A stretch of 64,000 nt of DNA from a virus. Where the stretch lies: IMG/VR virus record IMGVR_UViG_3300035099_000047, positions 32,001 to 96,000 of that record; one strand, written 5' to 3'. The position numbers and the translations under genes are program-made. The notes under the pieces were generated by a model. The model ran no database searches. It was given only the letters and a program-made list of their open reading frames with translations, and was not told the origin of the DNA. Shown one piece after another: positions 1-47,386 of this stretch (its first letter is position 1; the number at the start of each line of letters is the position of its first letter).

Positions 1-436
1 GCACACAAGTGAGCACTGCCCGGACTGCTTTGTTGCTGCAGCAGTTCCGAACCACCCCCATTGCATCCCAAAAATTGGTAGGCAAGTCGTTCCACTCACC
101 TGGATTTTCGATCTCTTCAGTAGGCAAGGCAATCTTGGCTTCCATACTGATCACAGCCCGGTCCCCAGGTACCCGAACACCCAAACCCCCCTGTTCCAAA
201 CCAATCTCCACTTCATCCTGGGGCAGCTTGCGCAACAAAGACAACAACTCTTTACCGTGAACAGCCCCCTCAAAATCAACCTTGCATTCCACCCGGCAAG
301 CCACAGTCTCGTTGTATGTAACCACATAACCACCATGGAACACAAAACAGTCGCTTTGGGCCAAATTCGGTATTTTAGCCAAACCAGCAGCCATGGCTTC
401 CAATTTGTTCAACAGATCTTTGCGTTTAACTTGCAT
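1..436 (-). CDS. DNA polymerase sliding clamp (beta-clamp-like), runs off the window
   Basis: Not in the ORF track. Manual translation from ATG at 436: MQVKRKDLLNKLEAMAAGLAKIPNLAQSDCFVF...GAVHGKELLSLLRKLPQDEVEI...CCSNKAVRAVLTCV, which follows the DnaN domain 1-2 pattern. Confidence 0.6.
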   Translation of the reverse strand, partial: MQVKRKDLLNKLEAMAAGLAKIPNLAQSDCFVFHGGYVVTYNETVACRVECKVDFEGAVHGKELLSLLRKLPQDEVEIGLEQGGLGVRVPGDRAVISMEAKIALPTEEIENPGEWNDLPTNFWDAMGVVRNCCSNKAVRAVLTCV

Positions 437-583
437 TATCCGGTTCCTTCAAACTAGAAATGACCTTTCGGCCTGTCAACGCCTCATATGTGAATTGCTT
501 CCCTTTGCTCCTCACAGGTGTAATCGCAAGGGCCCAAACGTTGGTAACTTCCACAATTAGGGCACTGCATTTGCTCACCCTTT

Positions 584-1396
584 TCAACCGTTACTGTACA
601 CCTTAGCAACCTTGATGGGGTTGAGTTTCTTCTTAAACTTTAGCAAACCCTCACTCCCCAGGCTTCCACCATCATTCACCAACTTTTTACGATTTTGAAC
701 CCATTCGCTGGTGTAAAACAAATATCGCAGGTACTCCTGCAAAAACGGATCCCCCCGATCCACACACAAGCGATGGTTGATATACATCCAGTTCTCATCG
801 CAAACGTTTAATCCCACCAACTCACCATTCAAGAACAACCCCCAACGCAGCAAACCCCGGATGGCAAACCGCAACATGACTTCAACATCTTCCAACTCCC
901 TACCTTTTGCCCATTTGTCCAACAAGTTGGCTGCCCCCTTACTACATTCCCTTTCATCCAACCTACGATACCAAATGTTGCCTGTTGTGCGGCTACACCA
1001 TTTGTGTACGTTGCGACGGAATGTCAACCATTTATTACCCACCATGAACAAAAACTGCTTCGGATCATAAATGATTTGATAATCCAAAAATTTCGTCAAC
1101 TCACCATCACCCCAACCCTTGTCAGGTTGGCTAGCCCAACAAGGAACGCTCAAATCAGGGGTATCATTGGTGTCCAAGGGGCAAACAAACCAACCATCCT
1201 CCCCAGGCTCTACAAAACCCCTGTATTCAGCAACTTGATTCCATTCCAAATCCTTCAGAGTCAAGTATTCTGCACTCTGAAAGAAATTAGGCTCCACGCC
1301 CACCTTCATCAGGCAATTCAAATAGTCCAGGATTAGCCTTTCGTTTACCACCACCGCGTTCCTTTTTAGGCAACTCCCCCTTAACCTCTTTTTCAC
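584..1396 (-). CDS. DUF2156/LPG-synthase-C-like GNAT protein (putative aminoacyl-tRNA-dependent transferase)
   Basis: DYQIIYD...GNKWLTFRRNVHKW and the C-terminal VNDGGSLGSEGLLKFKKKLNP match DUF2156 motifs. Confidence 0.65.
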   Translation of the reverse strand: MKKRLRGSCLKRNAVVVNERLILDYLNCLMKVGVEPNFFQSAEYLTLKDLEWNQVAEYRGFVEPGEDGWFVCPLDTNDTPDLSVPCWASQPDKGWGDGELTKFLDYQIIYDPKQFLFMVGNKWLTFRRNVHKWCSRTTGNIWYRRLDERECSKGAANLLDKWAKGRELEDVEVMLRFAIRGLLRWGLFLNGELVGLNVCDENWMYINHRLCVDRGDPFLQEYLRYLFYTSEWVQNRKKLVNDGGSLGSEGLLKFKKKLNPIKVAKVYSNG

Positions 1397-1460
1397 GAAG
1401 CAATCGCTCGATAAGCTTCTTGCTCACCCCTCCTGATTTACGACTCTTGCCGCCCACTTT

Positions 1461-1748
1461 CTAACCCTCCCCCTTTCCAGAACAACTACCAGGCATCGAA
1501 GGGAAACGATGCAGCAGAGACTTCAATGCCTTATCATATTCAGCCTTCTGGAGGAAGTATTCCCTGTCGTCCTCCACAACCATAACAGAAGAAGGTTCCC
1601 CTTTATCACCTATTCCATCAGGCATCTCTAAATCATTACTACCACAACGCGGGCAACAATTGATTGGTGGCCCCCCATCATCTGCTACATAGGTCACTTC
1701 ATATTGCAACTCACAATCAGTACAACGGATCAGGCGCAATTCAGTCAC
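1461..1748 (-). CDS. small zinc-ribbon protein
   Basis: CTDC...CPRCGS. Confidence 0.5.
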   Translation of the reverse strand: MTELRLIRCTDCELQYEVTYVADDGGPPINCCPRCGSNDLEMPDGIGDKGEPSSVMVVEDDREYFLQKAEYDKALKSLLHRFPSMPGSCSGKGEG

Positions 1749-2108
1749 GATTTTCCCCTAAAAAGCAAACACCTGAACCCCATTGCAAAGCACTCTCGCC
1801 CGTACCCCACTTCCTTTGCGCACCAATTCCGTGGCTTGAATAACAGCAGCCTCCAAAGTGTACATGGGAATGATTTGAGGATTCTGACCCTTACAAGTGA
1901 CTTCTATTTCAAACATGTTCGACAGCCTCCCAGCGCAAAAATTTAGCCAGTTGACGGTAGTCAGACCTCCACTCCACCCGCCAAGGTCCCCCTCGCTCAC
2001 CTATCAATTGCACCCGGGTGCCTCCACTCCGTTTAACAGCTAAAACCACCCGATCAGCTGTTTTCTTCAAGTGATACTCTCTGCTACAACTAAACCTATC
2101 AAGCCTCA

Positions 2109-2831
2109 TCACTTGTCCTCTTGCATTTCTCCACCCAGCTCATCATACACACACATACTTACTCTACCACGCATGTCTAGCTTCAAATCGTCAGACTCAA
2201 CATGAACCACGTCTTTCCCACCAAACCAAAACTTAACCTTATCTACAAACGTGTACAAAGCCATAAAATCATCCGTCCGCATACCCAAAGGCCCAAAGTG
2301 ATCAATCTCCACCGGGAACAACGGCATCCCTTTAGGCTTGTGTTCCACTTTAATCATTGTGCCTGTATAGATATTGCGCTGCACTATAGTCAGTTGTCCT
2401 TCGCGAGCACTAAACTCAATGTGACTCAAGCTATCATCCAGTAACTTACACACCTCACGAGGTATTACAGTCATACCGCCTATCGGCGGGCCTAACCTCC
2501 GAAACATATCCATTACCTGTTCCGGTGTATACTTGGGGGTCCTGCAACTCTTGGTGCGAATGTATTCTGGACTCTCCGCCCCATCAGTCAATATGAATTC
2601 CACTCGCCCGTCTTTCTCTACAACCTCTGAACTGTCGTAATCATTGGCTTCAAAGCTCACTGGGTGAGCAAACGGCTTTTCCCCAGTCAGGAACCGAAGC
2701 AACACCGTGCGATCGAAGTTAAGTATGTACACCCTATCATCAATACAATACACCGTGTTGCGAAACCGACCACACTGATGCAAAGCCACTGCATGCGAGA
2801 AAATGTTTTCTACGCGGTCAGATATTTTCAC
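2109..2831 (-). CDS. hypothetical protein
   Basis: 240 aa ORF overlapping its neighbours in the operon; no motif recognised. Confidence 0.6.
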   Translation of the reverse strand: MKISDRVENIFSHAVALHQCGRFRNTVYCIDDRVYILNFDRTVLLRFLTGEKPFAHPVSFEANDYDSSEVVEKDGRVEFILTDGAESPEYIRTKSCRTPKYTPEQVMDMFRRLGPPIGGMTVIPREVCKLLDDSLSHIEFSAREGQLTIVQRNIYTGTMIKVEHKPKGMPLFPVEIDHFGPLGMRTDDFMALYTFVDKVKFWFGGKDVVHVESDDLKLDMRGRVSMCVYDELGGEMQEDK

Positions 2832-4335
2832 AAATCAGGTCCTTTCTAAAATCGGTACCATCCCAAGTCCAAGTCTTACCATCCCGGTCATGCCCCACGG
2901 GTTCCAACCCTCTAGCCCAGCCGTGAGAGTAAGCATCATTACTTCCAGAGACATTCCAAAGCAAGTGGACCTCTTGTTTCAACGATTCACTCAAGAATCC
3001 ACCATGTTCATTTACCCAATTTACAAAATCTTGCCAATTGGTAGCCTGATTGCCCCGGCGTTTGATAAACCGGGCAGCCATCACCGCACAACCATAATTG
3101 AAACCCCCTCGGAACCAATCCCCCACTTCACAGCAAACGTCATCATCGTTGTCTGGCACATTGCCCATATCAAACGTGCTACATCGAATGCCCTTTTCCC
3201 TAAACAACTTCATAAACTCCCCAAGTAACAGACTACCCAACGGCTGACTGTCACACCCTAATAGGACCAAGCGATCCCAATCCAATCCAACATTGCAAAA
3301 TGCTTGATACATACCAGGGTTCTTAGCCGTATAGCTGTAAGTATCAAACGTAATGTGCCCCACCCCTGCATCCTTGAGGTCTGATATGTACCGCTCCACT
3401 TCGTCGGGTGGGTCACTCAAATACACCAAGAACGGTTCAATCCTAGCTACCACCCTCACCCCAGCCGAGGCCAATTGTTTCATAGCCCAAATGCGCCGTT
3501 CGTAACTAGGAGCACCAGGTTCCAACGCCTTGAGCACTTTGTTGTTGCTAGAAATCAACGTAACATGAACCGCCGCCTTGCCCTTGTTCTTGGCTAGGGC
3601 ATCCACGTAGTCATCTTCTCCAATCAAGTCACTCTTGGTGTTAACCATAGTAGGATAGGCCGTGTTAGACAAGTATCGCAGCAAACCGAGGCTAATACCC
3701 AACTTCCTCTCTTTGGGTAAAAAATCCTCGAACCGAATACCTAACCGCATAGGGATTTCCAAGGCAACTGCACGTTTCAAAGCTACCAAGGGGGATCCTG
3801 CATAGGCTTGCCAACCAGACTTACCTCCCCGAGTAGCCATCTTTTCCCCACTAGCAGTAACCCGAGCTATGCGACGCTCAGCCTTTTCATCGGATTCCCC
3901 TGATATGCTGTGGGTATCTTTACCCCGATAAGCCATCAACTTATCAAGCTCTCTGCAACTTTCATCCAAGTTACAATGGCGTAAGCCTACTGAGCGACTG
4001 TTGTCAAAAAAGGCTGTGTACAAAGTTGACTTAAAATTGCAAGCAAAACAGTATTTACATGCGTAAGGACAAAATATTGCATCGTACACATCCAAATTTA
4101 GAGGCATTGGACAAGCAGCTGCTCTGCAACTAACCTCAGCAAACGAGCCAAAATTATCCTCTTGCAACATGCGGGCCCGGCTTTGCCACTCTCTATTGTC
4201 CTGCTTAAACTCACGATACCCTTTTTTGCGCCCCTTTTCCTTTACAGCCTCCACCTTACCCCGGTCATCAACCAAGGGTTTCATGCGAGGGATCATTTGA
4301 CTCACAGCTTTGCGCAGCGCGTAGTAATTACTCAA
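2818..4335 (-). CDS. radical SAM protein (SplB/spore-photoproduct-lyase-like)
   Basis: CPYACKYC motif, TKSDLI, LEPGAPSYERRI, RIEPF. Confidence 0.85.
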   Translation of the reverse strand: MSNYYALRKAVSQMIPRMKPLVDDRGKVEAVKEKGRKKGYREFKQDNREWQSRARMLQEDNFGSFAEVSCRAAACPMPLNLDVYDAIFCPYACKYCFACNFKSTLYTAFFDNSRSVGLRHCNLDESCRELDKLMAYRGKDTHSISGESDEKAERRIARVTASGEKMATRGGKSGWQAYAGSPLVALKRAVALEIPMRLGIRFEDFLPKERKLGISLGLLRYLSNTAYPTMVNTKSDLIGEDDYVDALAKNKGKAAVHVTLISSNNKVLKALEPGAPSYERRIWAMKQLASAGVRVVARIEPFLVYLSDPPDEVERYISDLKDAGVGHITFDTYSYTAKNPGMYQAFCNVGLDWDRLVLLGCDSQPLGSLLLGEFMKLFREKGIRCSTFDMGNVPDNDDDVCCEVGDWFRGGFNYGCAVMAARFIKRRGNQATNWQDFVNWVNEHGGFLSESLKQEVHLLWNVSGSNDAYSHGWARGLEPVGHDRDGKTWTWDGTDFRKDLICENI

Positions 4336-4897
4336 CTTTAATCCCCTTCTCTCCCACGTACTTGTCCTCTTCCCAACCCGGGAACTTCAATTTACCTGAC
4401 TTAAACAAGGGTCGGAATATCTGAACAATTTCCTTTTCCCATCTTTTCATCATTTTTTCGTATGCTTTGAGATTAACAAGGGTCCCTTGACGACAAAGAT
4501 CCCGACAGCGATCCTGATGCTTGCGCCGTTGCAAATTGAGAAAATGTTGAAGTGAACAACAAGGGTCTCCTTCCCCACACAGTTCGTCTCCGAACATGCC
4601 CTCTTCTGCAGCCAGCTTCCAAGTCCCTTTCCGACACATGTCCGTAAACTCTTTACCTGCAGAACCTGACCACAACAACGTCCCCGGTAGCCACTTTTTT
4701 CCCTCAGCCACTAAGTAAATACGACACCTTTCTGCTTTAGCTATACCTTCACCCGGGTAAGGCTCAGCTGGCCGAATCGCCACATCCTTGCTGCCTATAC
4801 CTTCTCCGAAAGGGTGAAAAAGATCTATTGACTCAGCCATTTCCCGCACACCCGCCGCATGACCCACGTTAGACATTTCAAATCTCCCTTCCAACAT
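4328..4897 (-). CDS. hypothetical protein in the modification cluster
   Basis: 189 aa ORF overlapping both neighbours. Confidence 0.55.
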   Translation of the reverse strand: MLEGRFEMSNVGHAAGVREMAESIDLFHPFGEGIGSKDVAIRPAEPYPGEGIAKAERCRIYLVAEGKKWLPGTLLWSGSAGKEFTDMCRKGTWKLAAEEGMFGDELCGEGDPCCSLQHFLNLQRRKHQDRCRDLCRQGTLVNLKAYEKMMKRWEKEIVQIFRPLFKSGKLKFPGWEEDKYVGEKGIKVE

Positions 4898-5753
4898 TCC
4901 AAAACAACACTGGGTCTTTCAACCCTTTTATTCTACACCTCAACCACTCCCAAGCCTTCAAATCATAGTACCTATGACATGGAAATGGACATTCCACGGT
5001 ACTTGCTTGAGTGTATTCCCAACCCGGGTCCTCCAAGACCAGTGGACTACCACCGAGGCCTCCCCCCATTGGGTAGCCCCGAGCCTCGATTGATTCCTTT
5101 TTATGCTCCAAGTCCCCAGTACGCCCCATCACGCCTATTATTATACCATCCCCAGGCTTCCAACCCCGTAACAAACCCGCACAAACCGTTCCACTGCCCA
5201 CCGGTACCACTGTGGTCGCCGGTCGAATCAACTGAGTAACCGTTTTAACCCATTGATCCGCTGTAGCCTCTACAGTTTCACTCAATGGCAAACCCAACTC
5301 AAGCATTTCTGAACCATTCTTGTACCTATCCTTCAACATTTTCTTGCTGGAGTAATAGTTGATCTTGGCCCGTCCAGCCTCAATAGGCACCAACTCAGCC
5401 CCAAATTCCTTCCATTTGGCCCGGTGTTTCAACAACAATTCATTCGGCTGATTGTATTGAGGATCAAATATCACAGCCCTCATACCCAATTGTTGAGCTA
5501 CCCAAGCCACCCCGACCCCAGCCATGCTAATGGATGTCTCTGTGTATCCCACCACTGAGATCCCATTAGCTTTCAAACTACTCATCTTTTCCCACAGTCC
5601 ACGAACCTTGCTGAACGGAGGACCAGGCGCAGGGCAACATTGGTCTTCCCGCTTGACATACACGGTACGGCCCTTTACTTGATACACCTCCACCGGGGTA
5701 AGGGGATTTAGCTGAATCACACTTTCAAGCCCCACCGCAAACGCTTGCGACAC
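4878..5753 (-). CDS. PLP-dependent enzyme, fold type II (PALP; ACC deaminase/D-cysteine desulfhydrase-like)
   Basis: VYVKREDQ...SKVRG (PLP lysine), VPVGSGTV phosphate loop, YDLKAW. Confidence 0.8.
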   Translation of the reverse strand: MSQAFAVGLESVIQLNPLTPVEVYQVKGRTVYVKREDQCCPAPGPPFSKVRGLWEKMSSLKANGISVVGYTETSISMAGVGVAWVAQQLGMRAVIFDPQYNQPNELLLKHRAKWKEFGAELVPIEAGRAKINYYSSKKMLKDRYKNGSEMLELGLPLSETVEATADQWVKTVTQLIRPATTVVPVGSGTVCAGLLRGWKPGDGIIIGVMGRTGDLEHKKESIEARGYPMGGGLGGSPLVLEDPGWEYTQASTVECPFPCHRYYDLKAWEWLRCRIKGLKDPVLFWNVGREI

Positions 5754-6568
5754 AACTCAATTTGGCTCTCCCGTACATCCACACCCACGCTGTTCCTACC
5801 CCACCATTGGGCCACTTCACACGTAGTGCCCGAACCAACAAAAGGGTCCAAGACCCATCCTCCCGGAGGGCAACAACTCAAAATAAAAATCTCTGGCAAC
5901 CCTTCCGGGAAGGGGGCTTCGTTTTCATGAGCCAACTGATCCCCAATGTTACCACCTCCTACCACAAAGTGAAATACATTGCCCGGATTGGCCTTTTCCG
6001 GCGTTGTACGGCAGTTACGTTCCGGCTGCCTACGATGGGTAACCCGAGTGCCATCCTTGTTACGATTGCTCATCGCACCCCCAGTTCCATATTTAGGCTC
6101 GTGTCCACAAGCAGTGTTATCTGACCAGGGCAATTTACCAGGCCGCTTGAGGCATATAATGTACTCCCAATCCGCTCGAAACCAATCGTCCCCGCCACTG
6201 CCGGGAATGCCTACTCTATAATACACACATGGCCGATACATATGACAATCACCACCAGTCTGAAACCATTTAACCATCAAGGCTTCAGCCACTGGATAGT
6301 AATTGCGGTCCCTAGTAGGACAACCCATCACCCAAATCACCGGACCCTTGCAAATACGGGCGGCCTCAGTACTGACCTCCAACATATGGTCCACATATGT
6401 TTCAAAATCATCCCACCACTGCCATTCCTTCGACATCCCGTAGGTGCGAGCAAACAAATATGGCGGACTCCCGAACACCAAATCGAATCGATCGGCTGGT
6501 TGGGCTCTCATCCAAGTCAAGTTATCAGCACAAACCAGCTCGACCTTGATCACAACACAAATCTCCAC
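5717..6568 (-). CDS. DNA methyltransferase, beta class (probably N4-cytosine)
   Basis: N-terminal DLVFGSPPY catalytic motif and C-terminal VLDPFVGSGTT SAM-binding motif. Confidence 0.9.
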   Translation of the reverse strand: MEICVVIKVELVCADNLTWMRAQPADRFDLVFGSPPYLFARTYGMSKEWQWWDDFETYVDHMLEVSTEAARICKGPVIWVMGCPTRDRNYYPVAEALMVKWFQTGGDCHMYRPCVYYRVGIPGSGGDDWFRADWEYIICLKRPGKLPWSDNTACGHEPKYGTGGAMSNRNKDGTRVTHRRQPERNCRTTPEKANPGNVFHFVVGGGNIGDQLAHENEAPFPEGLPEIFILSCCPPGGWVLDPFVGSGTTCEVAQWWGRNSVGVDVRESQIELCRKRLRWGLKV

Positions 6569-7524
6569 GATCTACGTTTATCCAACCCTAGCTTTTGCTT
6601 GAACACATCTATTGTGTCTCCACAAATTATCCTACTCACCCCCAACCCACCAATCCATTCCAATGTCTTGGCAAAACCAAACACAGCAAAGCTATTATCT
6701 CCCAACTGGTGCTTATTAACCGTGATTTGTGCCTTGTCTCCCTTGACCTCAAATCCCACTGTGGCCCAAAGTACCCCATCACTTTTACGTCGGAACGACA
6801 AGAATTGGATATTCCCCACACCAGCGAAATACATGTCCAAATAAGCCAAATAATGACCCTTAAACAACATGAAATGACGATCCTTAGCATCTTCCGTCCA
6901 GGTGTCCCACAATTCTCTCACCTCTTCCTTTGAAAACTCACCTAAACCAACCTCGTACCGTTCTTGAGACAACCTGTAGTCCCGACGCATAACGTAACGA
7001 TGTTTGCCACTGTGGTGTGCTATCCTGTCCTCTAACACAAAAGGCGTGTCCACATAGTATTCATAATCACCTAATGGTTGTCCTTGCGGCCTCTCCCTAA
7101 ATGCAAAAGTCAATGATTTGACTTTACCTTTTATCCCTTGCAACGTTTGCAAGGCTTCCTCTGCACTACCACGAAACGTAATCAATTTGTAGTGGTCTCC
7201 ACGCCTTCGCAACAAGCAATTATCCACAAAACGGGCTTCACTGTTGTTCAAACTCAAACAAAAAGCAGCAGCAGAAGCTGGAAAATCAAAATAATCCAGT
7301 GGAACTTCACCTGCCAACCACTCACTAACCTTACCATAGGTTTCTTCCAACAAACCACCACCAATATCAAAATCAAAACCTTCCAACACGGCTATCCACC
7401 CCAAAACCTTAAAAATCAAATCCTTCCATCTCTCCAACCTGCTCCACCTCAATAGGTATTGGCTCCAAAAACTGAATATCAGTAGGGTCTCCATGGCCCA
7501 ATAGCACCACCGAAGCAAAGCCAA
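6550..7524 (-). CDS. second DUF2156/GNAT-like transferase (true start probably near 7390)
   Basis: DYEYYVD...SGKHRYVMRRDY and terminal FKQKLG parallel the motifs of 584..1396. Confidence 0.45.
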   Translation of the reverse strand: MALLRWCYWAMETLLIFSFWSQYLLRWSRLERWKDLIFKVLGWIAVLEGFDFDIGGGLLEETYGKVSEWLAGEVPLDYFDFPASAAAFCLSLNNSEARFVDNCLLRRRGDHYKLITFRGSAEEALQTLQGIKGKVKSLTFAFRERPQGQPLGDYEYYVDTPFVLEDRIAHHSGKHRYVMRRDYRLSQERYEVGLGEFSKEEVRELWDTWTEDAKDRHFMLFKGHYLAYLDMYFAGVGNIQFLSFRRKSDGVLWATVGFEVKGDKAQITVNKHQLGDNSFAVFGFAKTLEWIGGLGVSRIICGDTIDVFKQKLGLDKRRSWRFVL

Positions 7525-8116
7525 ACATACCCACCATTTCCACTCTCAAGTTCACTCTAGCCAATCCCTTGCTGAGCAACCAATAGTATTCCTCCACAGA
7601 CTGCACCCCATAGCTTTTACTCAAAGTACCAAACTTGAAAGCAAAACAAGCAGTATCCGTAACCATCAATCTATGACAAGCCTTACCAAACCTGCCCAAC
7701 ACCTCCCACCAATTCTCCAACTTACGATAGGTAAAATTATCACAGTCCATGAAGCACAGATCACAATCTGGAGGGTCCCAATTCCTAACATCAAAATTAG
7801 TGATTTCAGAGCAATACCCCCAATTGTCCTTTAGTATACTACAACAGTCTTCACTAAAGTCATTTAGATACATTTTGTCTATATCAAAACAACTGCTGGC
7901 CACAGCGGCACTAAAACCACAACCAGCCATAGCATCCAGGTAACACTGCAAATGTTTATCCGGTATAGAGCAATAAACCGCAGCAATTGCTCCGTACTTG
8001 TTTTTTATGTCCTTCCAGTGCCTTCCAACAAACTCACCCGGGGGCAAAAGCGCCCCATCTGCCCTCCGAACCATATCAGGCAACTTCAAACTCTTCCCCA
8101 TCACATGATAAATCAC
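7409..8116 (-). CDS. SAM-dependent methyltransferase-fold protein
   Basis: YLDAMAGCG motif I-like, LND, DLCFMD. Confidence 0.5.
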   Translation of the reverse strand: MIYHVMGKSLKLPDMVRRADGALLPPGEFVGRHWKDIKNKYGAIAAVYCSIPDKHLQCYLDAMAGCGFSAAVASSCFDIDKMYLNDFSEDCCSILKDNWGYCSEITNFDVRNWDPPDCDLCFMDCDNFTYRKLENWWEVLGRFGKACHRLMVTDTACFAFKFGTLSKSYGVQSVEEYYWLLSKGLARVNLRVEMVGMFGFASVVLLGHGDPTDIQFLEPIPIEVEQVGEMEGFDF

Positions 8117-9171
8117 AGCCCAGCATCCTTTAATGTAAAAAACTCACAACCATCTTCGCCCATCACTATTTGTTTGCCCTTATCATAGTCCCCTACACCT
8201 TCCCAGGTTCCTTCTAACACTTCCACTTTACTCCTACCCTGTTGGATACGGTGCACCCACCAATGAGTGTTAAACTTACTAGGATTAGGCACTGTTACGC
8301 CACAGCAGGTATTGCTCCGCTGCCGCCAACCCGGTTCCACATTAACAAAATCAGGACAACCCAGCACCATACCTTCCTCATCAGCTATTCTACACAATTC
8401 ACGCTGTATAGGTCTCCAATGTTTGTCTTGATTCATCTCCCAAATCCGCTCTATGTCCAACCCAATCTCAACAAACCGTTTAGCCACATGGTCATTCATG
8501 TGTAAATTGTAAGTGTTGTAGCTATGAACCCCAACAGATTTCAACCGTTTCAGCATATCACGGAACTGCTCAACCGTGTGATAGCCAGGTATGAATGGCT
8601 CACCATTAACTCCCACCTTGAATCCCCGTTTGACCCACTGAGCCATCAACTTGAACCGTTCCGGAACAGGTGTGGTCCGCCCTCGCTCTAACACCTCCCA
8701 ATCGCTCTCAGCTCCAGGACTGATGATGGGCATAATGGTCAACCCACCTAGCTTGTCCGCCTGCGCTAGCAAACCCTCTTCCATGTACAGTAACCCAAGA
8801 AACCGGGTTTGGATCACGTAGGACCACTCTAGTTGGATTAAGTGTTGCTGTATTCGATGAGACACCCGGTGTTCCGACTCAGCTAACTGATAAGGATCAG
8901 CCTTGTTGCCCAACCGAATAGTTTTTTTACGCTTGAGGGCCCAAGCCAAGCTGCTCTTGGGATTGGGGTTTTTCAAACCTCGCTCAAGCTGTCGGCGCAC
9001 CTCGTCTGGATCGGCCGGGCGGAGATCTTGACCCCAAGTGCGGTTCAGACGCCGCATATAGCAATGGTGACAGTCGGTCAAGCAATTCCAATAGGAATCA
9101 ATGGAAAGAGGCAAGGGGCAATACAGACAGTCCCCTCGGATGCCAACTGCCGATTGGTAATGTCCGGGCAT
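8113..9171 (-). CDS. radical SAM protein (SplB-like), paralog of 2818..4335
   Basis: CPLPLSIDSYWNCLTDCHHC, ADPYQ, EPFIPG. Confidence 0.85.
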   Translation of the reverse strand: MPGHYQSAVGIRGDCLYCPLPLSIDSYWNCLTDCHHCYMRRLNRTWGQDLRPADPDEVRRQLERGLKNPNPKSSLAWALKRKKTIRLGNKADPYQLAESEHRVSHRIQQHLIQLEWSYVIQTRFLGLLYMEEGLLAQADKLGGLTIMPIISPGAESDWEVLERGRTTPVPERFKLMAQWVKRGFKVGVNGEPFIPGYHTVEQFRDMLKRLKSVGVHSYNTYNLHMNDHVAKRFVEIGLDIERIWEMNQDKHWRPIQRELCRIADEEGMVLGCPDFVNVEPGWRQRSNTCCGVTVPNPSKFNTHWWVHRIQQGRSKVEVLEGTWEGVGDYDKGKQIVMGEDGCEFFTLKDAGL

Positions 9172-9238
9172 CTTGCTCTGACCCTAAAATAGGATCACTT
9201 CCACCATCGAGGCACCTTAACCCCTTCCTACAAAAATC

Positions 9239-9288
9239 AAAAAAGGCGGGGGAACGCAGAGTTTCAACTCAACACGCTCAACCCCGCC
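9239..9288 (-). terminator. putative intrinsic terminator
   Basis: Minus strand GGCGGGG...CCCCGCC followed by T6. Confidence 0.4.
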
Positions 9289-9492
9289 CCGGGGTTTGGT
9301 CCCACCGGGACTGGTAGATCTCATTCAGAAAGAGCTACCAGTCCCATCTTCTTCTGATTCCTGCTTCAACAACCATTGCCTGACTAGTCAGGTCTTACAC
9401 AGTTTCCACAGGCGTTTGCTTGCCTAGGGCAAGCCTGTTCCAGTGGAACTCACCGTACAGCAAAGTCGATCCCCACCAATCCCAACGGAGGC

Positions 9493-10074
9493 TCAATTGG
9501 TGACAGGCGTGACCTTGTCTCCATCCACGGTCAGGGCCCCAAACATCTGTCCAGCCATGGTGGACCACTTGGCTACAACGTAGGACTCTCTGGAGTTGCT
9601 CTTACCACCAGCAGCCACGTAATGCTTATCGATAGCTTCCGTCAGCTGTGCAATGGTGGAAGGACCCTTCAGTGCCACAACCACCTCCAAACCGGCCTTC
9701 ACCCGGCTGAGCTTAGATTGCTTGGGGGGCTTGGGGGCCTTGGCTGTCCCTCGTGGCCTTCCCCGCTTTTTCTCAACCACAGGGGCCGCAGGCTCAGTCG
9801 CCTCAGCAACACCTTCATCACCATTGGCTTCCACCACAGGCTTAGCCTCTTTAACCACCTCAACTTCGCCCTTGGTGCGGATCAACGTCTGAAGCGTTTC
9901 CAACTGCTCATCGGTCAGCTCCGCATCCTCCGGCTTCACCTGTTCAGCAATCTTGGCAACCTGCTCCATGGTCTTTTCCCGGCTCCAAGAACCCGCGTTC
10001 TTGTACCCGAGTGCCACACACAAACTCACAACATCCGACCTTAACAACTGAGTCATCTCCGGTCTCCCTATCAA
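9493..10074 (-). CDS. putative DNA-binding protein with AT-hook
   Basis: KKRGRPRG motif in a low-complexity linker between two helical regions. Confidence 0.45.
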   Translation of the reverse strand: MIGRPEMTQLLRSDVVSLCVALGYKNAGSWSREKTMEQVAKIAEQVKPEDAELTDEQLETLQTLIRTKGEVEVVKEAKPVVEANGDEGVAEATEPAAPVVEKKRGRPRGTAKAPKPPKQSKLSRVKAGLEVVVALKGPSTIAQLTEAIDKHYVAAGGKSNSRESYVVAKWSTMAGQMFGALTVDGDKVTPVTN

Positions 10075-10221
10075 CTAGAAATCGAACCTTTTGTTCAACC
10101 CACCTTGGGTCTCATCATTATCTATTATACACAGAGTTGAGTACAAACACACAGGATTCCAATAAAATTTTCAAAAATAGTTGCTACTCTTGAGTCCCCA
10201 ACTGGTTAGAACTTCAGTTCT

Positions 10222-11661
10222 TCATTTCACTGACAAAATCACAGGACAAGCAATGTCCAAGCAACCAGCTATCAGTACCTCTTGCCTCTCCGTACTATGA
10301 GCAAACCGACGATCCAGCAAATTGACGTGGATAATATCCTTTTCCTTCTCCTCCTCGCTGCTGTATAGCCCCAACATAGCTGTTACATGATCGTGTACCC
10401 TGCGATCATTGTTAAAATTGCGTTTACGCAATTGCATCCCGCTGTAACTCTCTGCATCCGCCTGAGTAGCAGTCACCACACAACAGTTGAAATCCTGACT
10501 CAAGCGGCGCAAATCCATCCAGTTGCGATTGATTTTGTCCCGTCGATCCTCCCTGCCATGGGGCAAAGCCAAAATGTCAGCATAATCTACCAACAACACA
10601 TCCACGTGCCATCCCTCACGGCCCCAACCTTGCAATTTAGATCTGATTTCAGCTACAGCCAAGCTACCAGCGCTATAACAACTCAAACGAAACAGATCTT
10701 TACCTCGACTAATCTTGCGCCAAGCCCGGAATGCTTCCACCCCACTAATACCCTCCAACCGCCTTTCTTCAACAACCGGGGGCAGCCTTTTGTCTTTGAA
10801 CTCTACAGGATACAAAACTGTCTTGGTCTTCAATGGTCGCCTCAACACCCGCTGACCCAGCCGCATCAGCACTTCGTATTTGGTATGATCCCCAGCATCA
10901 AAGTAAGCCAAGTTGCACCGAGCTTTGACAACCCGATAGGCTAGGTCTTGAATGAAAAAGCTCTTCCCCCGTTTAGAGCTTGCTATTAGCACCACCAACG
11001 CATCCCTGCGGAACTCGTTACCTATAAACCTGCCCAGCACCCCAGGGTAAGTAACCAACGGCCGCATGTGATCTTGATCATCAATTGCTTCCATCCACAC
11101 ATCCAAATCCTCAGTCACCTTAATCGTATCATCCCCATCCAAGTTCACAGGCCCCAGAGCACTCAACCGACCCTGAGCCCCGTAGGCGTCATTGCGGTCC
11201 TCGAGGTCAACCTGAGCCTCTTCTATTGCTTTCTTGACTTTAACTCTGGTAAGCAACGTACTACCCAAATCCAGAGCGTAGTCGGTACGATAGTGTTCCT
11301 GATTGTTTAGCCACTCATCGTTCAAACTAGTCAGCAACCGTTCCACCAACTTAACACTGTCTTCACTCCGACCAACAGCCCAATCCTCATACATACCCCG
11401 TATAGCCGGACCCGGGCTGGTGCCATACTTGCGCATGTAATCTATGCACCAACCGGCTACCATGTTTTCTTCATTGGTGCTAAACAAGTCCCCACCATTC
11501 CATATACCAGCTACTCTGGCGCAGACCACAGGGTCCATGATCATGGAACCCAGAAATCGCCGGGCATCCTTGCCTTCGTAACGAACCGATTTCATTAGTT
11601 CACACCCCAGCCTCGGCCATACAATTGTATACCGGATTGATGAAACCAGCCGGCAACCCAA
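10222..11661 (-). CDS. DnaB-like (SF4) replicative helicase; likely start ATG 11595
   Basis: Walker A ASSKRGKS, LLVDYADIL, VVTATQ. Confidence 0.85.
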   Translation of the reverse strand: MGCRLVSSIRYTIVWPRLGCELMKSVRYEGKDARRFLGSMIMDPVVCARVAGIWNGGDLFSTNEENMVAGWCIDYMRKYGTSPGPAIRGMYEDWAVGRSEDSVKLVERLLTSLNDEWLNNQEHYRTDYALDLGSTLLTRVKVKKAIEEAQVDLEDRNDAYGAQGRLSALGPVNLDGDDTIKVTEDLDVWMEAIDDQDHMRPLVTYPGVLGRFIGNEFRRDALVVLIASSKRGKSFFIQDLAYRVVKARCNLAYFDAGDHTKYEVLMRLGQRVLRRPLKTKTVLYPVEFKDKRLPPVVEERRLEGISGVEAFRAWRKISRGKDLFRLSCYSAGSLAVAEIRSKLQGWGREGWHVDVLLVDYADILALPHGREDRRDKINRNWMDLRRLSQDFNCCVVTATQADAESYSGMQLRKRNFNNDRRVHDHVTAMLGLYSSEEEKEKDIIHVNLLDRRFAHSTERQEVLIAGCLDIACPVILSVK

Positions 11662-12832
11662 ACTCCTGCAACACCACGTCTAACTCCTCTTGAGTGGGCC
11701 TGCGTCGAGGGTTTTCAAATGATGCTGGATTGTATCGCTTTTGCCAAGTGTAGCAAATGGCTTTATACAACTTGTCCTCCGGACAGCCCGCATCCACCTT
11801 GTAACGATAGTATTGGGAATCTTGAGCAAGGAGCTTGAACCGCTTAGTGTCTATTGTACCGAACCCGGTCAAAGTCATGTGGCCATTGGTACCTTCTCGT
11901 TGATCCAATTCCCACAATCCCATATCTCTTTGATACTTGCCCCAGTAAGTACACATATCAGTTAATGCCCACAGCCGACGTATGTACTGCCACCAATAGG
12001 CTTTTTTGTACCACTTGATAAACTTCCAAACATCCTCGTTTGTAGCATTTCTTTCCTTCTTTACTCTATCAATTTCTCTCATGCAACCCTCTCTTGTAAC
12101 CGCTCTCCTTTTGGGTCCTGCATGGACTAAATCATCATCTTCATCAACTAACACTCCAAACAGGTAAGCTCCCTGTTCCCTTGTTTCTTGGTCATATTCG
12201 GATCCGCTGGGTTTTCCATGAGGACATTCCTTCATTTTGTGTGTGCGACATTTTTCGTTAGAAAAATGTCCCGCCTTTTTCCTAGTTGCCTTACTCTTAA
12301 TATAGGAGTTGGGGGTTTGACTAGGATCCAATACCGCAGTTTCACGGTAATTGGAGTCATGATTTTCTGGTTCCAAATACCGTGGTTCCCCAGTAGATGG
12401 AGTTCCTTGGTCACTAGTGTTTTGCACTTCTAAATACCCATTATCCAAAAGCCACAAGGTCACTACCCTGTGTATCCATTTAGCATTGATGCGAATGTGT
12501 CGCCTTGGAGGGCAACCGAACCTTGCTACTTCTATAGGAGCTCCATCTGCCTCCGATAGTTGCTTCAGTAGTCGGGCTTGTACCTCGTAGGATAGACCTA
12601 GTTCCTTTTGCATTTCCTCCACTGTGTAGAAAAACCAACCCCTATTCCACTTGTATCCCTTACTCTTCATAACCCTAGCGTGAAAACGCACTAGGGCATG
12701 AAGAAAACAAGCTTTTTCCAACCCTAGTTTTAGCACAATAGCTTGATGTACAGTGAAATGGCCTTTGCTAATCAGATCCCTCTTCATCAACTTCTTGAAT
12801 CCTTCCATCGTGAAATCTGCTGTTACTTTCAT
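11600..12832 (-). CDS. phage replication initiator-like protein (N-terminal wHTH)
   Basis: LGLEKACFLHAL...WFFYTVEEMQKELGLS; lies directly upstream of the helicase; low-complexity linker with internal DNA repeats. Confidence 0.6.
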   Translation of the reverse strand: MKVTADFTMEGFKKLMKRDLISKGHFTVHQAIVLKLGLEKACFLHALVRFHARVMKSKGYKWNRGWFFYTVEEMQKELGLSYEVQARLLKQLSEADGAPIEVARFGCPPRRHIRINAKWIHRVVTLWLLDNGYLEVQNTSDQGTPSTGEPRYLEPENHDSNYRETAVLDPSQTPNSYIKSKATRKKAGHFSNEKCRTHKMKECPHGKPSGSEYDQETREQGAYLFGVLVDEDDDLVHAGPKRRAVTREGCMREIDRVKKERNATNEDVWKFIKWYKKAYWWQYIRRLWALTDMCTYWGKYQRDMGLWELDQREGTNGHMTLTGFGTIDTKRFKLLAQDSQYYRYKVDAGCPEDKLYKAICYTWQKRYNPASFENPRRRPTQEELDVVLQEFGLPAGFINPVYNCMAEAGV

Positions 12833-41060: not shown

Positions 41061-41311
41061 GGTTCTTTATGCTCCAAGGCTTCGGCCTTTTGACAACGCA
41101 GGCAATCATACATTCTAGCGGGTTCATGACCATACCGACTACAAAGAAATACTCGGCCTCCATCAGCCCGACAACAAGGTGATCTAGTGGTTCTACCCGT
41201 GTCAATACGATAGTTGCAATGGAATACCAGTTCCTTCAACCGGTTGCGCAACACTTCGTTTTGAGCAATGTTGAGCCCTGGCAACAGTTCTCGATTACGG
41301 TGAAGTCTCAT
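40970..41311 (-). CDS. small Cys-containing protein
   Basis: ATGA-coupled to the upstream gene; PCC, CLRC. Confidence 0.45.
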   Translation of the reverse strand: MRLHRNRELLPGLNIAQNEVLRNRLKELVFHCNYRIDTGRTTRSPCCRADGGRVFLCSRYGHEPARMYDCLRCQKAEALEHKEPWIISLAQRSSGWGLSSYSRDQVLRSLSAI

Positions 41312-43692: not shown

Positions 43693-43706
43693 TTACACCA
43701 TCCCCA

Positions 43707-45221
43707 CTAAAAATTAGGGAACACAGCCACTCTTGCGGCTTTGTAAGTGTGTGTACCATTTTTATTCAAACTGTAATCCCCCATTTCGTTAGGTTCGTGC
43801 TTGTACAATTCGGAGACTGAATACTTACCATCTGAACGGTACTTCAACTTCTTATTGATCCCAAACACGGTACCATGCATTTTGTGAAAAGCCAAAGCAT
43901 CAGAGGTGAAAAATCGTATCAAATCATCTGTCCATCCATCATAATAGCTACTCCCCAACAGCTGATTGATAAGGGTCAGATATTCTGTATTGGTAGTGAC
44001 TACATTGTACAGGGCCTTCAATCCGGCTATCAACTCCTCGGTTTCCCCAAATTGTTCCTGTAACATACCCACAATCTGTTTCAAAATAGGCCCCCCTGAT
44101 ACATCCCCAGAAGCCTCCGCATCCTTTATGCGAATAATCAAAGGTAACAAATCATACAACTGGACCCGGGGCCAACGGCCTAGATAGGCTGCAGTGCGAT
44201 GGTACCTGCGTACCTCCCCCTTCAAGTCCGCATCGGCGGTATGCTTTTTCAATTGAAACTTTTGCAAAAGGGCGTCAGCACTGTGAACCTTAGTAATACT
44301 CCAAACCAAATAGCTGCTTGAAAAATGATAATTGGTAACTTCGCCCTTCAAAACTGCATTTGTACAGTGTAATTTTCGACCACCTAATATCAAGGCATCA
44401 GTTGTATGCAATAGAGAAATGGTTTCAGTAGGTGATGCCCAACTCAACCGGCGTGGCATTGCCCAAAGATCAAAGCGCGTGGCTGGATTGTAAAGCGTCC
44501 AGATTTCCGCCGCCGAAAGGGCACGCCCGTAAACCCGCACGTCACGCACCAGACCTCGCCAGAACATCTCGTACGAGCCGTAGTTCAAGGCCCCGACGAA
44601 TCCGTAGTTGCTGGACCACGTATCCGTGGGCATTTGCGCGAGCGTCTTTGAGTTTTTCAACCGTCCGTCGACGTACAGCGACCAGGCGGAATTGTCGAGA
44701 ACGGCCGCAACGTGGTGCCAAACCCCGTCGTTATGCGCGCTCGTCGCAACCAGATTAGTGTCCCATACGCTTATGCCGAGAGCGCCCGGCGGCTGCCACC
44801 GGTCGGTGTTGCCAGCACCAATAATGACCGCGTAGTGTTGGGATGTTACCCCGTAAGAAAACGCCCCGCGGATGTACTCCGACGGACATTCCGTGTAGTT
44901 GACCCAGAGCGAAATCGTTCGCGGCGATGCCCCGAGGGGGAGGCGGGTATCGGGAAAGCGGAACTGATAACTGCCGTCGAATTCCGGCACGAAGCCAAAC
45001 GTGGGATCCGCGTGCCATTTTGCCACCTCCGGCACCATGCTTATGTCAACTGCCCTGCCGTGATTGTCATAAACAATCTCCGGCGCGACACTGCCCGTGC
45101 ATGCCGAGAGCGGCCACCAGGCAATAAGACTGCGTGATTGCAGCGATTCTTGCCGGACTTGCGGTATTCTTGGAGACAACAGGTTGGCGCGGGCCATTGG
45201 GCGGTCCGAGATGACTCCCAT
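43707..45221 (-). CDS. LamG/ConA-like domain + HxTDA repeats + baseplate gpI-like domain
   Basis: TISLWV, WHHVAAV, LYVDG, DVRVYGRALSAAEI; LYDLLPLIIRIKD. Confidence 0.75.
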   Translation of the reverse strand: MGVISDRPMARANLLSPRIPQVRQESLQSRSLIAWWPLSACTGSVAPEIVYDNHGRAVDISMVPEVAKWHADPTFGFVPEFDGSYQFRFPDTRLPLGASPRTISLWVNYTECPSEYIRGAFSYGVTSQHYAVIIGAGNTDRWQPPGALGISVWDTNLVATSAHNDGVWHHVAAVLDNSAWSLYVDGRLKNSKTLAQMPTDTWSSNYGFVGALNYGSYEMFWRGLVRDVRVYGRALSAAEIWTLYNPATRFDLWAMPRRLSWASPTETISLLHTTDALILGGRKLHCTNAVLKGEVTNYHFSSSYLVWSITKVHSADALLQKFQLKKHTADADLKGEVRRYHRTAAYLGRWPRVQLYDLLPLIIRIKDAEASGDVSGGPILKQIVGMLQEQFGETEELIAGLKALYNVVTTNTEYLTLINQLLGSSYYDGWTDDLIRFFTSDALAFHKMHGTVFGINKKLKYRSDGKYSVSELYKHEPNEMGDYSLNKNGTHTYKAARVAVFPNF

Positions 45222-45239
45222 CCATTCCTCCTACCAAAT

Positions 45240-45746: not shown

Positions 45747-45781
45747 AGCTCAAACCCAAGGGTTAAAAGTTGAAAGTTGGT

Positions 45782-46210: not shown

Positions 46211-46221
46211 AGCTTCCCCTT

Positions 46222-47370: not shown

Positions 47371-47386
47371 TTTCAGCTCCTACCTT

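Follow-up and report, generated by a model that had tools for sequence, protein, structure and literature searches.

A gene cluster carried by an uncultured large phage on the minus strand, between positions 584 and 9171 of the window (the whole 64,000-nucleotide stretch of DNA that was analysed), probably encodes a putative new type of post-replicative DNA base hypermodification that is derived from an amino acid. This module most likely bypasses all known starting enzymes to make a new modified base. Its core consists of two radical-SAM enzymes (rSAM2 and rSAM1), a PCNA-like clamp, and a DUF2156-like protein. The module is spread widely, yet it has not been described before. All genes between 584 and 9171 lie on the minus strand, and neighbors are packed close together or overlap by 4–37 nt. 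These genes and their flanks are as follows.

2..436, minus strand: replicative sliding clamp of 338 aa, C-terminal portion (flank); phrog_947, E 7e-28 at full length
584..1396, minus strand: DUF2156/Fem-type tandem-GNAT protein, 270 aa, core; by fold, and by PF09924 in relatives
1461..2112, minus strand: three short ORFs of 95, 80, and 67 aa that separate the clamp gene from the DUF2156-like gene; doubtful genes
2109..2831, minus strand: PCNA/gp45-type two-domain clamp subunit, 240 aa, core; by AF2 and Foldseek fold
2818..4335, minus strand: rSAM1, the long radical-SAM paralog, 505 aa, core; PF04055, motif CPYACKYC
4328..4897, minus strand: ORFan within the operon, 189 aa; no relatives
4878..5753, minus strand: PLP enzyme of fold type II, homolog of the gp52 decarboxylase; PF00291, phrog_7093, M6 gp52
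5717..6568, minus strand: beta-class N6/N4 DNA methyltransferase with SPPY motif IV and FxGxG motif I, accessory; PF01555
6550..7437 (ORF to 7524), minus strand: GNAT324, a probable Fem/DUF2156-like acyltransferase, ∼295 aa, accessory; weak signals
7409..8116, minus strand: MT235, class-I SAM methyltransferase fold, 235 aa, accessory tailoring gene; Atlas features and structure
8113..9171, minus strand: rSAM2, the short radical-SAM paralog, 352 aa, core; family matches, motif CLTDCHHC
9493..11661, minus strand: conserved 193-aa protein (cluster c13) and DnaB-like helicase (flank); upstream boundary of the slot

Relatives were not found for the 95-, 80-, and 67-aa ORFs, and the 189-aa ORFan has none among 5.8 billion proteins or in 83 related loci. 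A DnaB-like helicase lies upstream of the module, and the clamp, UDG-exo, PolA, and clamp loader genes lie downstream, which agrees with an earlier sequence-only reading that placed the cluster among replication genes.

The 83 related loci were read 10 kb to either side. Their genes follow the order DnaB, rSAM2, a variable slot, rSAM1, PCNA-like clamp, DUF2156-like protein, and replicative clamp. The rSAM1 gene is present in all 83 loci, rSAM2 in 80, the PCNA-like clamp in 79, the DUF2156-like gene in 72, and the PLP gene in 42. The slot between the radical-SAM genes holds either the PLP gene or an aldo-keto reductase accompanied by a FAD oxidase or a methyltransferase, and PLP and aldo-keto reductase genes co-occur in none of the 83 loci. 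Among the alternatives to PLP are a DAO-type FAD oxidase and an aldo-keto reductase, two kinds of enzyme that work in amino-acid and amine chemistry. The sequence-only reading did not recognise the two methylases and the second GNAT as accessory, and it missed the limited spread of the PLP enzyme. The absence of this enzyme from half of the loci is a counterpoint to reading the module as one for DNA base hypermodification.

Sister loci (n = 80), from phages that share these replication genes, were chosen via the neighboring UDG-exo protein. In 79 of them all four core genes are missing, including that for the 240-aa clamp, and all 79 retain the 338-aa clamp, whose gene runs on past the start of the window. 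Genes for DpdA-like, FolE, QueE, and QueD proteins occur in 26–30 of these 79 core-free loci, QueC in 13, and QueF in seven; wherever the interval is readable, they sit between DnaB and the clamp. Neither the 83 module loci nor the present genome has any of these 7-deazaguanine genes. At least 11 changes of the module label are needed to fit the UDG-exo tree, and well-supported branches force six of them. For example, a module locus (L008) and a deazaguanine locus (L099) are sisters with 99% support, and their flanking genes are 64%–91% identical, whereas their slot contents are unrelated. The module and the 7-deazaguanine cassette are mutually exclusive and are exchanged between close relatives. 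A slot shared with a DNA-modification cassette hints at the same function but does not prove it. The module fills the same DnaB-to-clamp slot as the phage cassette (DpdA, FolE, QueD, QueE, QueC, QueF), but its enzymes are unrelated, and its chemistry would differ from that of a transglycosylase that exchanges the guanine base.

The 240-aa protein yields an AF2 model with a pLDDT of 88.5, and its Foldseek matches are PCNA, 9-1-1, and T4-type clamps. Judged by this modelled fold, it is the module's own PCNA/gp45-type clamp, distinct from the 338-aa replicative clamp. The sequence-only reading overlooked the clamp; it had proposed HHpred for this gene and for 4328..4897, of which the first gained its fold from AF2 and Foldseek and the second is the ORFan. 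A model of the complex between rSAM1 and the clamp scores 0.62 (best of three controls, 0.10), passing a mark at which 58 of 80 solved complexes, but just 2 of 110 mismatched pairs, also pass, although this pass may partly reflect PCNA-peptide likeness because PCNA-peptide complexes have already been solved. Three model runs show at least 82% contact agreement, with partner pLDDT values of at least 79. In the modelled interface, N-terminal peptide residues 8–24 of rSAM1 lie on the C-terminal strand of the clamp (residues 223–237) in a PIP-type manner. The N-terminal extension of rSAM1 (residues 1–70) is conserved. We predict that the clamp binds the N-terminal peptide of rSAM1.

The PLP enzyme matches PF00291 with 42 bits (cut-off 35) and phrog_7093 with an E value of 2e-51, consistent with its initial assignment to fold type II. 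It is 35% identical to M6 gp52 over 93% of its length, and relatives reach 47%. Residue K49 aligns with the Schiff-base lysine of gp52 (K36) and is invariant in 42 sequences. The M6 enzyme decarboxylates an amino-acid-thymine adduct that is part of DNA, and enzymes of the gp52 family are known only from DNA hypermodification (PMC8989533).

For the DUF2156-like protein, AF2 gives a model with a pLDDT of 91.7 that matches 2hqy, MprF synthase domains, Sbb17/Sba18, and FemX in Foldseek (E 3e-10 to 2e-5, TM 0.5–0.7). PF09924 is matched by 18 of 37 relatives, and the window's own protein is under the Pfam cut-off (12.6 vs. 27.5 bits). The fold makes this protein a candidate aminoacyl-tRNA-dependent transferase. 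It shares its fold with the MprF synthase domain (DUF2156), FemX, Sbb17/Sba18, and the uncharacterised 2hqy. Unlike MprF, FemX, and Sbb17/Sba18, it is phage-borne and fixed in a replication-gene module, and its proposed acceptor is a DNA-borne group. To our knowledge, all characterised DUF2156/Fem enzymes work on lipids, peptides, or small molecules, and none works on DNA. The signals for GNAT324 are Atlas features (0.93) and Acetyltransf_6 in 6 of 46 relatives (E ≥ 0.026), and its family aligns to the first GNAT family with a probability of 8% by hhalign. Its relatives form 77 representative clusters. All three contexts checked fall in the module, behind an rSAM2-sized gene, and the single one with annotated downstream genes runs on through PLP, rSAM1, clamp-sized, and DUF2156-sized genes. 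Of the two DUF2156/GNAT-like proteins originally named, then, 584..1396 stands by its fold and the second is weakly backed.

The module could instead be a small-molecule or peptidyl-nucleoside biosynthetic cluster whose radical-SAM, PLP, reductase, methyltransferase, and tRNA-dependent enzymes make a soluble metabolite (such as an analogue of a nucleotide, a signal, or an inhibitor) and do not modify DNA. Among the characterised proteins nearest in structure to the 270-aa protein are MprF and the tRNA-dependent peptide synthases Sbb17/Sba18 of an antibiotic pathway. Natural-product clusters typically combine genes for radical-SAM enzymes, PLP enzymes, aldo-keto reductases, FAD oxidases, and methyltransferases, and a base-level entry enzyme was not found in the 172-kb record. 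However, a dedicated PCNA-like clamp, predicted to sit on rSAM1, is gained and lost together with the enzymes, the module is swapped with a DNA cassette at one position, and the PLP enzyme belongs to a family that acts on DNA-bound adducts (PMC8989533). These observations make a soluble product unlikely.

The SPPY methylase matches PF01555 with 89.6 bits and carries the motifs GSPPY and DPFVGSGTT, and MT235 is a class-I methyltransferase according to ESM Atlas features and structure (TM 0.60–0.67 to tRNA/amino methyltransferases), with a conserved motif I (D..AG.GF). Thus, the SPPY DNA methylase and the second MTase-fold protein of the sequence-only reading are both confirmed. The former occurs in 7–16 of the 83 loci at no constant place, and the latter in 15, partnered by PLP or aldo-keto reductase. 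The structural neighbors of MT235 are tRNA and protein amino-methyltransferases, which would fit modification of RNA or protein, the target being host or phage tRNA or rRNA, or else a protein of the replication machinery, for instance the clamp itself; the clamp-like protein would then serve as substrate or scaffold and not as a tether to DNA. Many radical-SAM enzymes and class-I methyltransferases target tRNA or rRNA, DUF2156/Fem enzymes bind tRNA, and the predicted rSAM1-clamp contact fits an enzyme-substrate pair equally. This explanation nevertheless appears quite improbable given the joint gain and loss of clamp and enzymes, the exclusion by and exchange with the 7-deazaguanine cassette, the confinement of the gp52 family to DNA hypermodification (PMC8989533), and the lack of a consistent association between phage tRNA genes and the module.

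The description of rSAM1 and rSAM2 as SplB-like radical-SAM paralogs is borne out by a PF04055 match for rSAM1 (32.2 bits, cut-off 29.5), by phrog_13321 matches for both, and by partial matches of both to the PA0069/Rv2578c "SplB-like" NCBIfam models (∼50 bits vs. cut-offs of 360–430). The two are 20% identical. Conserved cysteines are C75, C89-x3-C93-x2-C96, and C401-C402 in rSAM1, and, for rSAM2 with 70 relatives compared, C18, C30-x3-C34-x2-C37, C272, and C289-C290. The additional conserved cysteines, one N-terminal and a CC pair near the C terminus, point to an auxiliary cluster. Kinship with M6 gp53, the sole known case of a radical-SAM enzyme that installs a modification in DNA (PMC8989533), is distant (22%–26% identity over the core); rSAM2 finds it by BLAST with an E value of 3e-7, and rSAM1 by hhalign with a probability of 77% (E 2e-5, 211 columns). 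The pair resembles SPL and the SplB-like families PA0069 and Rv2578c in its radical-SAM core, CxxxCxxC motif, and DNA-associated lineage, but it scores far under the family cut-offs and has the extra cysteines, and rSAM1 bears a predicted clamp-binding extension. Repair, in which this SPL-like pair on its clamp reverses spore-photoproduct-type UV lesions in packaged phage DNA after injection, would fit the source annotation of homologs as "DNA repair photolyase" and the clamp tethering, but it is very improbable, as it accounts neither for the obligatory tandem GNAT nor for the gp52-like decarboxylase, the oxidase, reductase, and methyltransferase genes that replace one another, or the mutual exclusion with a base-modification cassette, and a PDB profile search returned no spore photoproduct lyase at E ≤ 1.

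Hypermodification of DNA thus remains our preferred reading. No ADDT, 5-HMUDK, HMUDK_hel, TS, ThyX, dUTPase, TGT, or TET/JBP was found in the 172-kb record (78% complete), and M6 gp51, 54, 55, 56, and 58 have zero BLAST matches in the 83 loci. The rest of the genome might still carry an entry enzyme. The sequence-only reading recognised no 5-hmU kinase or amino acid:DNA transferase in the window and suggested a genome-wide search for hydroxymethylase, kinase, and aGPT genes; the absence extends to the whole record. The starting base would therefore be canonical, or at least not made by the M6 route. The idea of a new base modification is strongly backed by context: the slot shared with the 7-deazaguanine cassette, the clamp predicted to bind rSAM1, and the M6 gp52 homolog. 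Its tRNA-dependent part is a suggestion from the fold of the 270-aa protein, with Mom as a tRNA-to-DNA precedent (PMC13219725).

In the proposed mechanism, the clamp would ring newly made phage DNA and tether rSAM1 there through its N-terminal peptide. The radical-SAM pair might then form or rearrange a carbon-linked, amino-acid-type side chain on a canonical base, which would bypass 5-hmdU, the kinase, and the amino acid:DNA transferase. Using a charged host tRNA, the DUF2156-like enzyme could either supply the amino acid or aminoacylate the new side chain at its amine. The genes between the radical-SAM genes would tailor this chain: the gp52-like PLP enzyme may decarboxylate it, the methyltransferase and the second GNAT may decorate it in the present phage, and a FAD oxidase and aldo-keto reductase may replace PLP-type tailoring in others. 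The order of steps and the role of the GNAT are guesses, because tRNA acyl transfer uses up the carboxyl that a gp52-like decarboxylase needs. The modification presumably shields phage DNA from host nucleases, as would the 7-deazaguanine cassette it replaces.

The 5-NedU pathway of M6 comprises an amino acid:DNA transferase (gp51), a PLP decarboxylase (gp52), a radical-SAM glycinyl-thymine isomerase (gp53), a 5-hmdU DNA kinase (gp54/55), and a dUMP hydroxymethylase (gp58) (PMC8989533, PMC5889632). The module resembles it in its PLP enzyme, which is clearly homologous to gp52 and has the same lysine, in the gp53 core of its radical-SAM pair, with the upstream Cys and CxxxCxxC, in its location in the replication region, and in its combinatorial tailoring. 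Unlike in M6, a hydroxymethylase, a kinase with its helical partner, Nmad5, and an amino acid:DNA transferase are missing from both the 172-kb record and the 83 loci, and the module has two radical-SAM enzymes instead of one, plus its own PCNA-like clamp and a DUF2156-type GNAT. Mom of phage Mu is a GNAT that takes glycine from Gly-tRNA and places it on adenine N6 of dsDNA (PMC13219725), and it provides a precedent for a GNAT-superfamily enzyme that hypermodifies DNA after replication via a charged tRNA, with no pre-replicative step. However, Mom is a single-domain GNAT that acts alone, whereas the candidate in the module is a tandem-GNAT protein of the DUF2156/Fem fold that is always accompanied by two radical-SAM enzymes and a clamp.

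The window covers bases 32001-96000 of a 172-kb record estimated to be 78% complete. The phage is of the myovirus type: Baseplate genes lie at 51-63 kb, and the window opens with a replication block. Between 584 and 9171, every gene lies on the minus strand, and the genes are packed closely or overlap. The module and its upstream flank are as follows.

Genes of the module and its upstream flank, in transcription order
10222-11661, minus strand, DnaB-like helicase, upstream flank of the module
8113-9171, minus strand, rSAM2, the short radical-SAM paralog, 352 aa, first in transcription order
7409-8116, minus strand, MT235, class-I methyltransferase fold by ESM Atlas features and structure
6550-7437, minus strand, GNAT324, a probable GNAT, weakly supported
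5717-6568, minus strand, SPPY N6/N4 DNA methylase, PF01555, GSPPY and FxGxG motifs
4878-5753, minus strand, PLP enzyme, PF00291, phrog_7093
4328-4897, minus strand, ORFan of 189 aa, no relatives or family match
2818-4335, minus strand, rSAM1, the long radical-SAM paralog, 505 aa, PF04055
2109-2831, minus strand, PCNA-like protein, 240 aa, by predicted fold
1461-2112, minus strand, three small ORFs, no relatives or family match
584-1396, minus strand, DUF2156-like protein, 270 aa, by predicted fold, last in transcription order

Downstream of the module, and extending beyond the window start, lie genes for a 338-aa sliding clamp (matching phrog_947 over its full length, E 7e-28), a UDG-exonuclease, PolA, an RFC-like clamp loader, a gp32-like SSB, and RecA. 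The sequence-only reading had placed the module among replication genes, and the neighbors on both sides bear this out. That reading had also singled out the gene at 4328-4897 for analysis; searches for relatives and family matches returned nothing for it or for the three small ORFs. Promoter and terminator scans found sites no more common than in shuffled sequence.

Several other features of the region were recorded. GC skew on the plus strand is strongly negative (-0.28 to -0.34) over window positions 1-12000, which hold the module and replication genes; in the rest of the window it is mostly -0.03 to -0.23, and thus weaker for the most part. A tRNA-Ile(TAT) gene, flanked by the UDG-exonuclease and PolA genes, lies outside the window, ∼2.3 kb ahead of its start (genome 29619-29692; 15619-15692 of this phage's own locus, L093), and is placed identically in the closest relative (L003:15993-16067). 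Upstream of the window, two IS605-type TnpB/OrfB genes (L093:8692-10314 and L093:4782-5957), encoding proteins of 540 and 391 aa with a Cas12f-like TNB domain, have inserted among the genes for SSB, RecA, and the 5'-3' exonuclease of the replication module. An 846-aa radical-SAM protein (phrog_1802), unrelated to the module, adjoins very large baseplate/tail proteins (window 38165-40705 and 41308-51499).

The module is real and widespread. By BLAST and clustering, we analyzed 83 loci that carry it, gathered with an alignment-based pattern, and these share the order DnaB, rSAM2, a variable slot, rSAM1, PCNA-like, DUF2156-like, replicative clamp. Four genes form the core (rSAM1 in 83 loci, rSAM2 in 80, PCNA-like in 79, and DUF2156-like in 72), and the minimal module consists of these alone. 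The other genes are accessory: The PLP enzyme occurs in 42 loci, MT235 in 15, the N6/N4 methylase in 7-16, and GNAT324 in 3. The slot between the two radical-SAM genes is swappable. It can be empty, or it can hold the PLP gene, DUF362, a D12-like methylase, or an aldo-keto reductase paired with either MT235 or a DAO-type FAD oxidase. The PLP enzyme and the aldo-keto reductase never occur together in the 83 loci. With its extra PLP, MT235, GNAT324, and methylase genes, the window therefore holds one of the richest versions of the module.

The module is common among uncultured phages, with more than 500 relatives of rSAM1 and 123 contigs in IMG/VR. A metagenome search yielded 538 rSAM1 relatives at E ≤ 0.001, and the best 120 of these 538 are all at least 51% identical. 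The 8.6-kb block has no megablast match among INPHARED phages, where tblastn with rSAM1 gave one weak partial match and no cultured phage with the module. Across the 185,579 species genomes of GTDB, rSAM1 appears in five MAG contigs only and in no isolate. Our literature searches found no published description of the module.

A second set of 80 sister loci was fetched by the neighboring UDG-exonuclease protein rather than by a module gene. Their exonucleases are 41%-57% identical to that of this phage, the same range as in module-bearing relatives, and profile searches place the 338-aa clamp next to the exonuclease in nearly all 80 loci. One of the 80 (L172) has all four core genes and the other 79 have none of them, which indicates that the four are gained and lost together. 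Instead, many sister loci carry 7-deazaguanine genes (DpdA-like 30, FolE 27, QueE 27, QueD 26, QueC 13, QueF 7). Where the interval can be read, these genes sit in the same slot, bounded by the DnaB-like helicase and the 338-aa clamp. The DpdA-like protein matches the annotated DpdA of phage Iggy and its relatives. Neither this genome nor any of the 83 module loci has a deazaguanine gene.

The two cassettes have changed places repeatedly. On a quick, unrooted FastTree of 140 exonuclease rows, the module label changes at least 11 times, with six changes forced by well-supported branches. This phage falls in a supported group of 12 rows with five deazaguanine and three module phages. One pair, L008 and L099, comes from the same metagenome and forms sisters at 99% support, with flanking genes 64%-91% identical. 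In the slot, L008 has rSAM2-PLP-rSAM1-PCNA-DUF2156 and L099 has QueD-QueE-FolE-GT-DpdA. This pair, the tree, and the mutual exclusion of the two gene sets indicate that the slot is a place of interchangeable DNA-modification cassettes in this clade, an observation that can serve as a practical guide in the search for more such systems there.

Some sister loci also hold glycosyltransferases in the slot, including TAGT. A GT1-like glycosyltransferase (∼370 aa) lies beside DpdA inside the 7-deazaguanine cassette in L099 (5609-6712) and seven other sister loci, and a TET-associated glycosyltransferase is found in three module-bearing loci (L031, L037, L070). Either enzyme may be a pointer to further decorated bases.

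The gene at 2109-2831, left unnamed by the sequence-only reading, has neither a PHROG nor a Pfam match, and a PDB sequence search with its profile gave a chance match only. Its AF2 model (pLDDT 88.5) has the two-domain fold of a sliding-clamp subunit. Structure matches in the PDB number 500 at E ≤ 0.001, and the first 50 listed, which start at E 2e-9, are PCNA or 9-1-1 chains; viral structure matches include T4-type clamps with TM up to 0.70. We considered whether this protein is the replicative clamp and rejected the idea, because sister phages keep the 338-aa phrog_947 clamp without the 240-aa protein. An RFC-like clamp loader is encoded by the phage genome.

When rSAM1 was modeled in complex with the PCNA-like clamp, the pair scored 0.62, compared with 0.10 for the best of three controls. 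Of 80 solved complexes, 58 attain this mark, as do 2 of 110 mismatched pairs. The runs share at least 82% of their contacts, and the pLDDT of the partner is at least 79. In the predicted contact, rSAM1 residues 8-24 run along the C-terminal strand of the clamp (223-237). These residues belong to a family-conserved N-terminal extension that is missing from rSAM2 and in which P16 is invariant and Y4, R8, and R17 are almost so. The modeled arrangement resembles PIP-type peptide binding, and for that reason likeness to solved PCNA complexes may account for part of the score. With this proviso, the model supports binding of rSAM1 by the clamp.

Both radical-SAM proteins match phrog_13321 and carry the CxxxCxxC motif, as expected from the earlier description of two SplB-like radical SAM paralogs, though matches to the SplB-like NCBIfam models (NF033668, NF038135) are partial (28-51 bits against cut-offs of 360-430). 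rSAM1 exceeds the PF04055 cut-off (32.2 vs. 29.5 bits), with C89, C93, and C96 invariant in 24 sequences. In rSAM2 the motif is invariant in 70 sequences, and the PF04055 score of 17.3 bits is under the cut-off. The two are distant paralogs with 20% identity. They share further conserved cysteines, one ahead of the cluster motif and a C-terminal CC pair, and this set would fit an auxiliary cluster of the kind described for M6 gp53 (PMC8989533). Both proteins are distantly related to gp53, as seen by BLAST (E 3e-7 for rSAM2 and 1e-3 for rSAM1) and by hhalign (probability 77% over 211 columns). A PDB search with the rSAM1 family profile matched no chain at E ≤ 1, solved SPL included. From these comparisons, any relationship to SPL appears only distant, at the superfamily level and through gp53.

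The radical-SAM families show other variations. Inteins with Hint/PT-HINT domains, which are usual in important phage replication-type genes, interrupt several rSAM1 homologs (P0004, P0033, P0070; L081:9953-10537). An insertion of ∼40 residues, rich in charged residues, is present at about residues 139-185 of rSAM1 from this phage, and most family members are without it (505 vs. ∼467 aa). Four loci (L027, L050, L051, L081) encode a third radical-SAM paralog on the downstream side of the DUF2156-like gene; two small conserved genes (clusters c21 and c36) precede it, and the replicative clamp comes next.

The assignments made for the PLP enzyme and both methyltransferases stand. The fold-II PLP enzyme scores above the PF00291 cut-off and has a phrog_7093 match (E 2e-51). 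It is 35% identical to M6 gp52 over 93% of its length (relatives reach 47%), and its invariant K49 aligns with K36, the Schiff-base lysine of gp52. By this alignment it is a gp52-type enzyme, a putative decarboxylase. In M6, the radical-SAM isomerase gp53 makes a C-linked glycine-thymine adduct in DNA that gp52 decarboxylates (PMC8989533). PDB sequence searches gave no match for the PLP enzyme or the 338-aa clamp. The SPPY methylase passes PF01555 (89.6 bits vs. a cut-off of 26.7), with GSPPY and DPFVGSGTT in beta-class order, and the other methyltransferase-fold protein is MT235. The N6/N4 methylase was set aside as a maker of the radical-SAM substrate because only 7-16 of the 83 loci have it and its position varies among them.

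Two DUF2156/GNAT-like proteins had been proposed, and the 270-aa protein holds up by fold. It scores 12.6 bits with PF09924 (DUF2156/LPG_synthase_C; cut-off 27.5), a family matched by 18 of 37 relatives at E ≤ 1 (best 6.4e-6). Foldseek with its AF2 model (pLDDT 91.7) retrieved 2hqy (E 3e-10), MprF synthase domains (8e-8), Sbb17 (2e-6), and FemX (2e-5), as well as Sba18; Sbb17 and Sba18 are peptide synthases that depend on tRNA. Judged by its model, the protein is a DUF2156/Fem-type tandem GNAT. The second protein, GNAT324, is less secure: hhalign against the DUF2156-like family gave probabilities of 0.5% (single sequence) and 8% (profile to profile), and we do not tie it to that family. Its profile has no match in a PDB sequence search. 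The GNAT324 family comprises 77 representative clusters and lies inside the module in all three contexts checked. Phage tRNAs were rejected as a pointer to a donor amino acid, since tRNA-Ile(TAT) is the only one in this 172-kb record and assorted tRNAs of varied identity occur in six of the 83 module loci.

The sequence-only reading recognized no 5-hmU kinase or amino acid:DNA transferase in the window and proposed searching the whole genome for these and a hydroxymethylase. The absence extends across the 172-kb record (78% complete), which has no PF00303 match at E ≤ 1 for a thymidylate-synthase-like dUMP hydroxymethylase and no match for the 5-hmdU DNA kinase (PF18748), its helical partner (PF18723), or the amino acid:DNA transferases (aGPT-Pplase, PF18724; ADDT). 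ThyX, dUTPase, TGT, and TET/JBP are also absent from this record. M6 gp51, gp54, gp55, gp56, and gp58 have no BLAST match in any of the 83 loci, and gp58 has none in the genome.

We consider it probable that the module hypermodifies DNA and enters this chemistry by a new route. A cluster for a soluble metabolite is improbable, and a system that modifies RNA or protein somewhat more so; neither accounts at once for the dedicated clamp, the tailoring enzymes, and the swapping with the deazaguanine cassette. An SPL-type repair system, which fails on the same grounds, is the least probable of the three.

If the module does modify DNA, then the clamp would hold rSAM1 on newly replicated DNA, and the radical-SAM pair would act on a canonical base, where it would build or rearrange a carbon-linked side chain of the amino-acid type. 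We know of no tRNA-dependent DNA modifier other than Mom. This enzyme provides a precedent for tRNA-to-DNA transfer (PMC13219725), by which the DUF2156-like enzyme would deliver or extend the side chain from a charged tRNA. The slot enzymes would trim this chain, by decarboxylation here and by oxidation and reduction elsewhere. A weakness of this scheme is that a gp52-type decarboxylase needs a free carboxylate, and none is left once the acyl group has been transferred from tRNA. The GNAT may therefore act after an amine-bearing side chain exists; FemX and Sbb17 act on amines. A tentative version, which we hold to be possible but doubtful, is that clamp-riding radical-SAM enzymes functionalize a C-H of a canonical base in duplex DNA and couple an amino acid from a charged tRNA. 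A candidate site, by analogy with SPL-type chemistry, would be, for example, the thymine methyl group. If this is true, amino-acid-derived bases would arise in DNA entirely after replication, with neither a hydroxymethyl nor a kinase step, and the system would be the first DNA modifier to have a sliding clamp of its own.

Modification of DNA by this module, in whatever form, would represent a new biosynthetic entry into base hypermodification and a second use of radical-SAM chemistry on DNA. It would also be the first known instance of a modification enzyme that has a private sliding clamp, and this clamp would explain genome-wide modification after replication. Such a system would also supply new enzymes for DNA labeling and new targets or evasions for restriction and defense systems.

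To our knowledge, all amino-acid-derived hypermodifications of thymidine described so far begin with 5-hmdU together with a DNA kinase and an amino acid:DNA transferase. In contrast to the 5-hmdU pathway of the M6/ViI/SP10 type, the module has a gp52-type PLP enzyme without the hydroxymethylase, kinase, helical partner, or transferase. Genetically, it behaves as an alternative to the 7-deazaguanine system.
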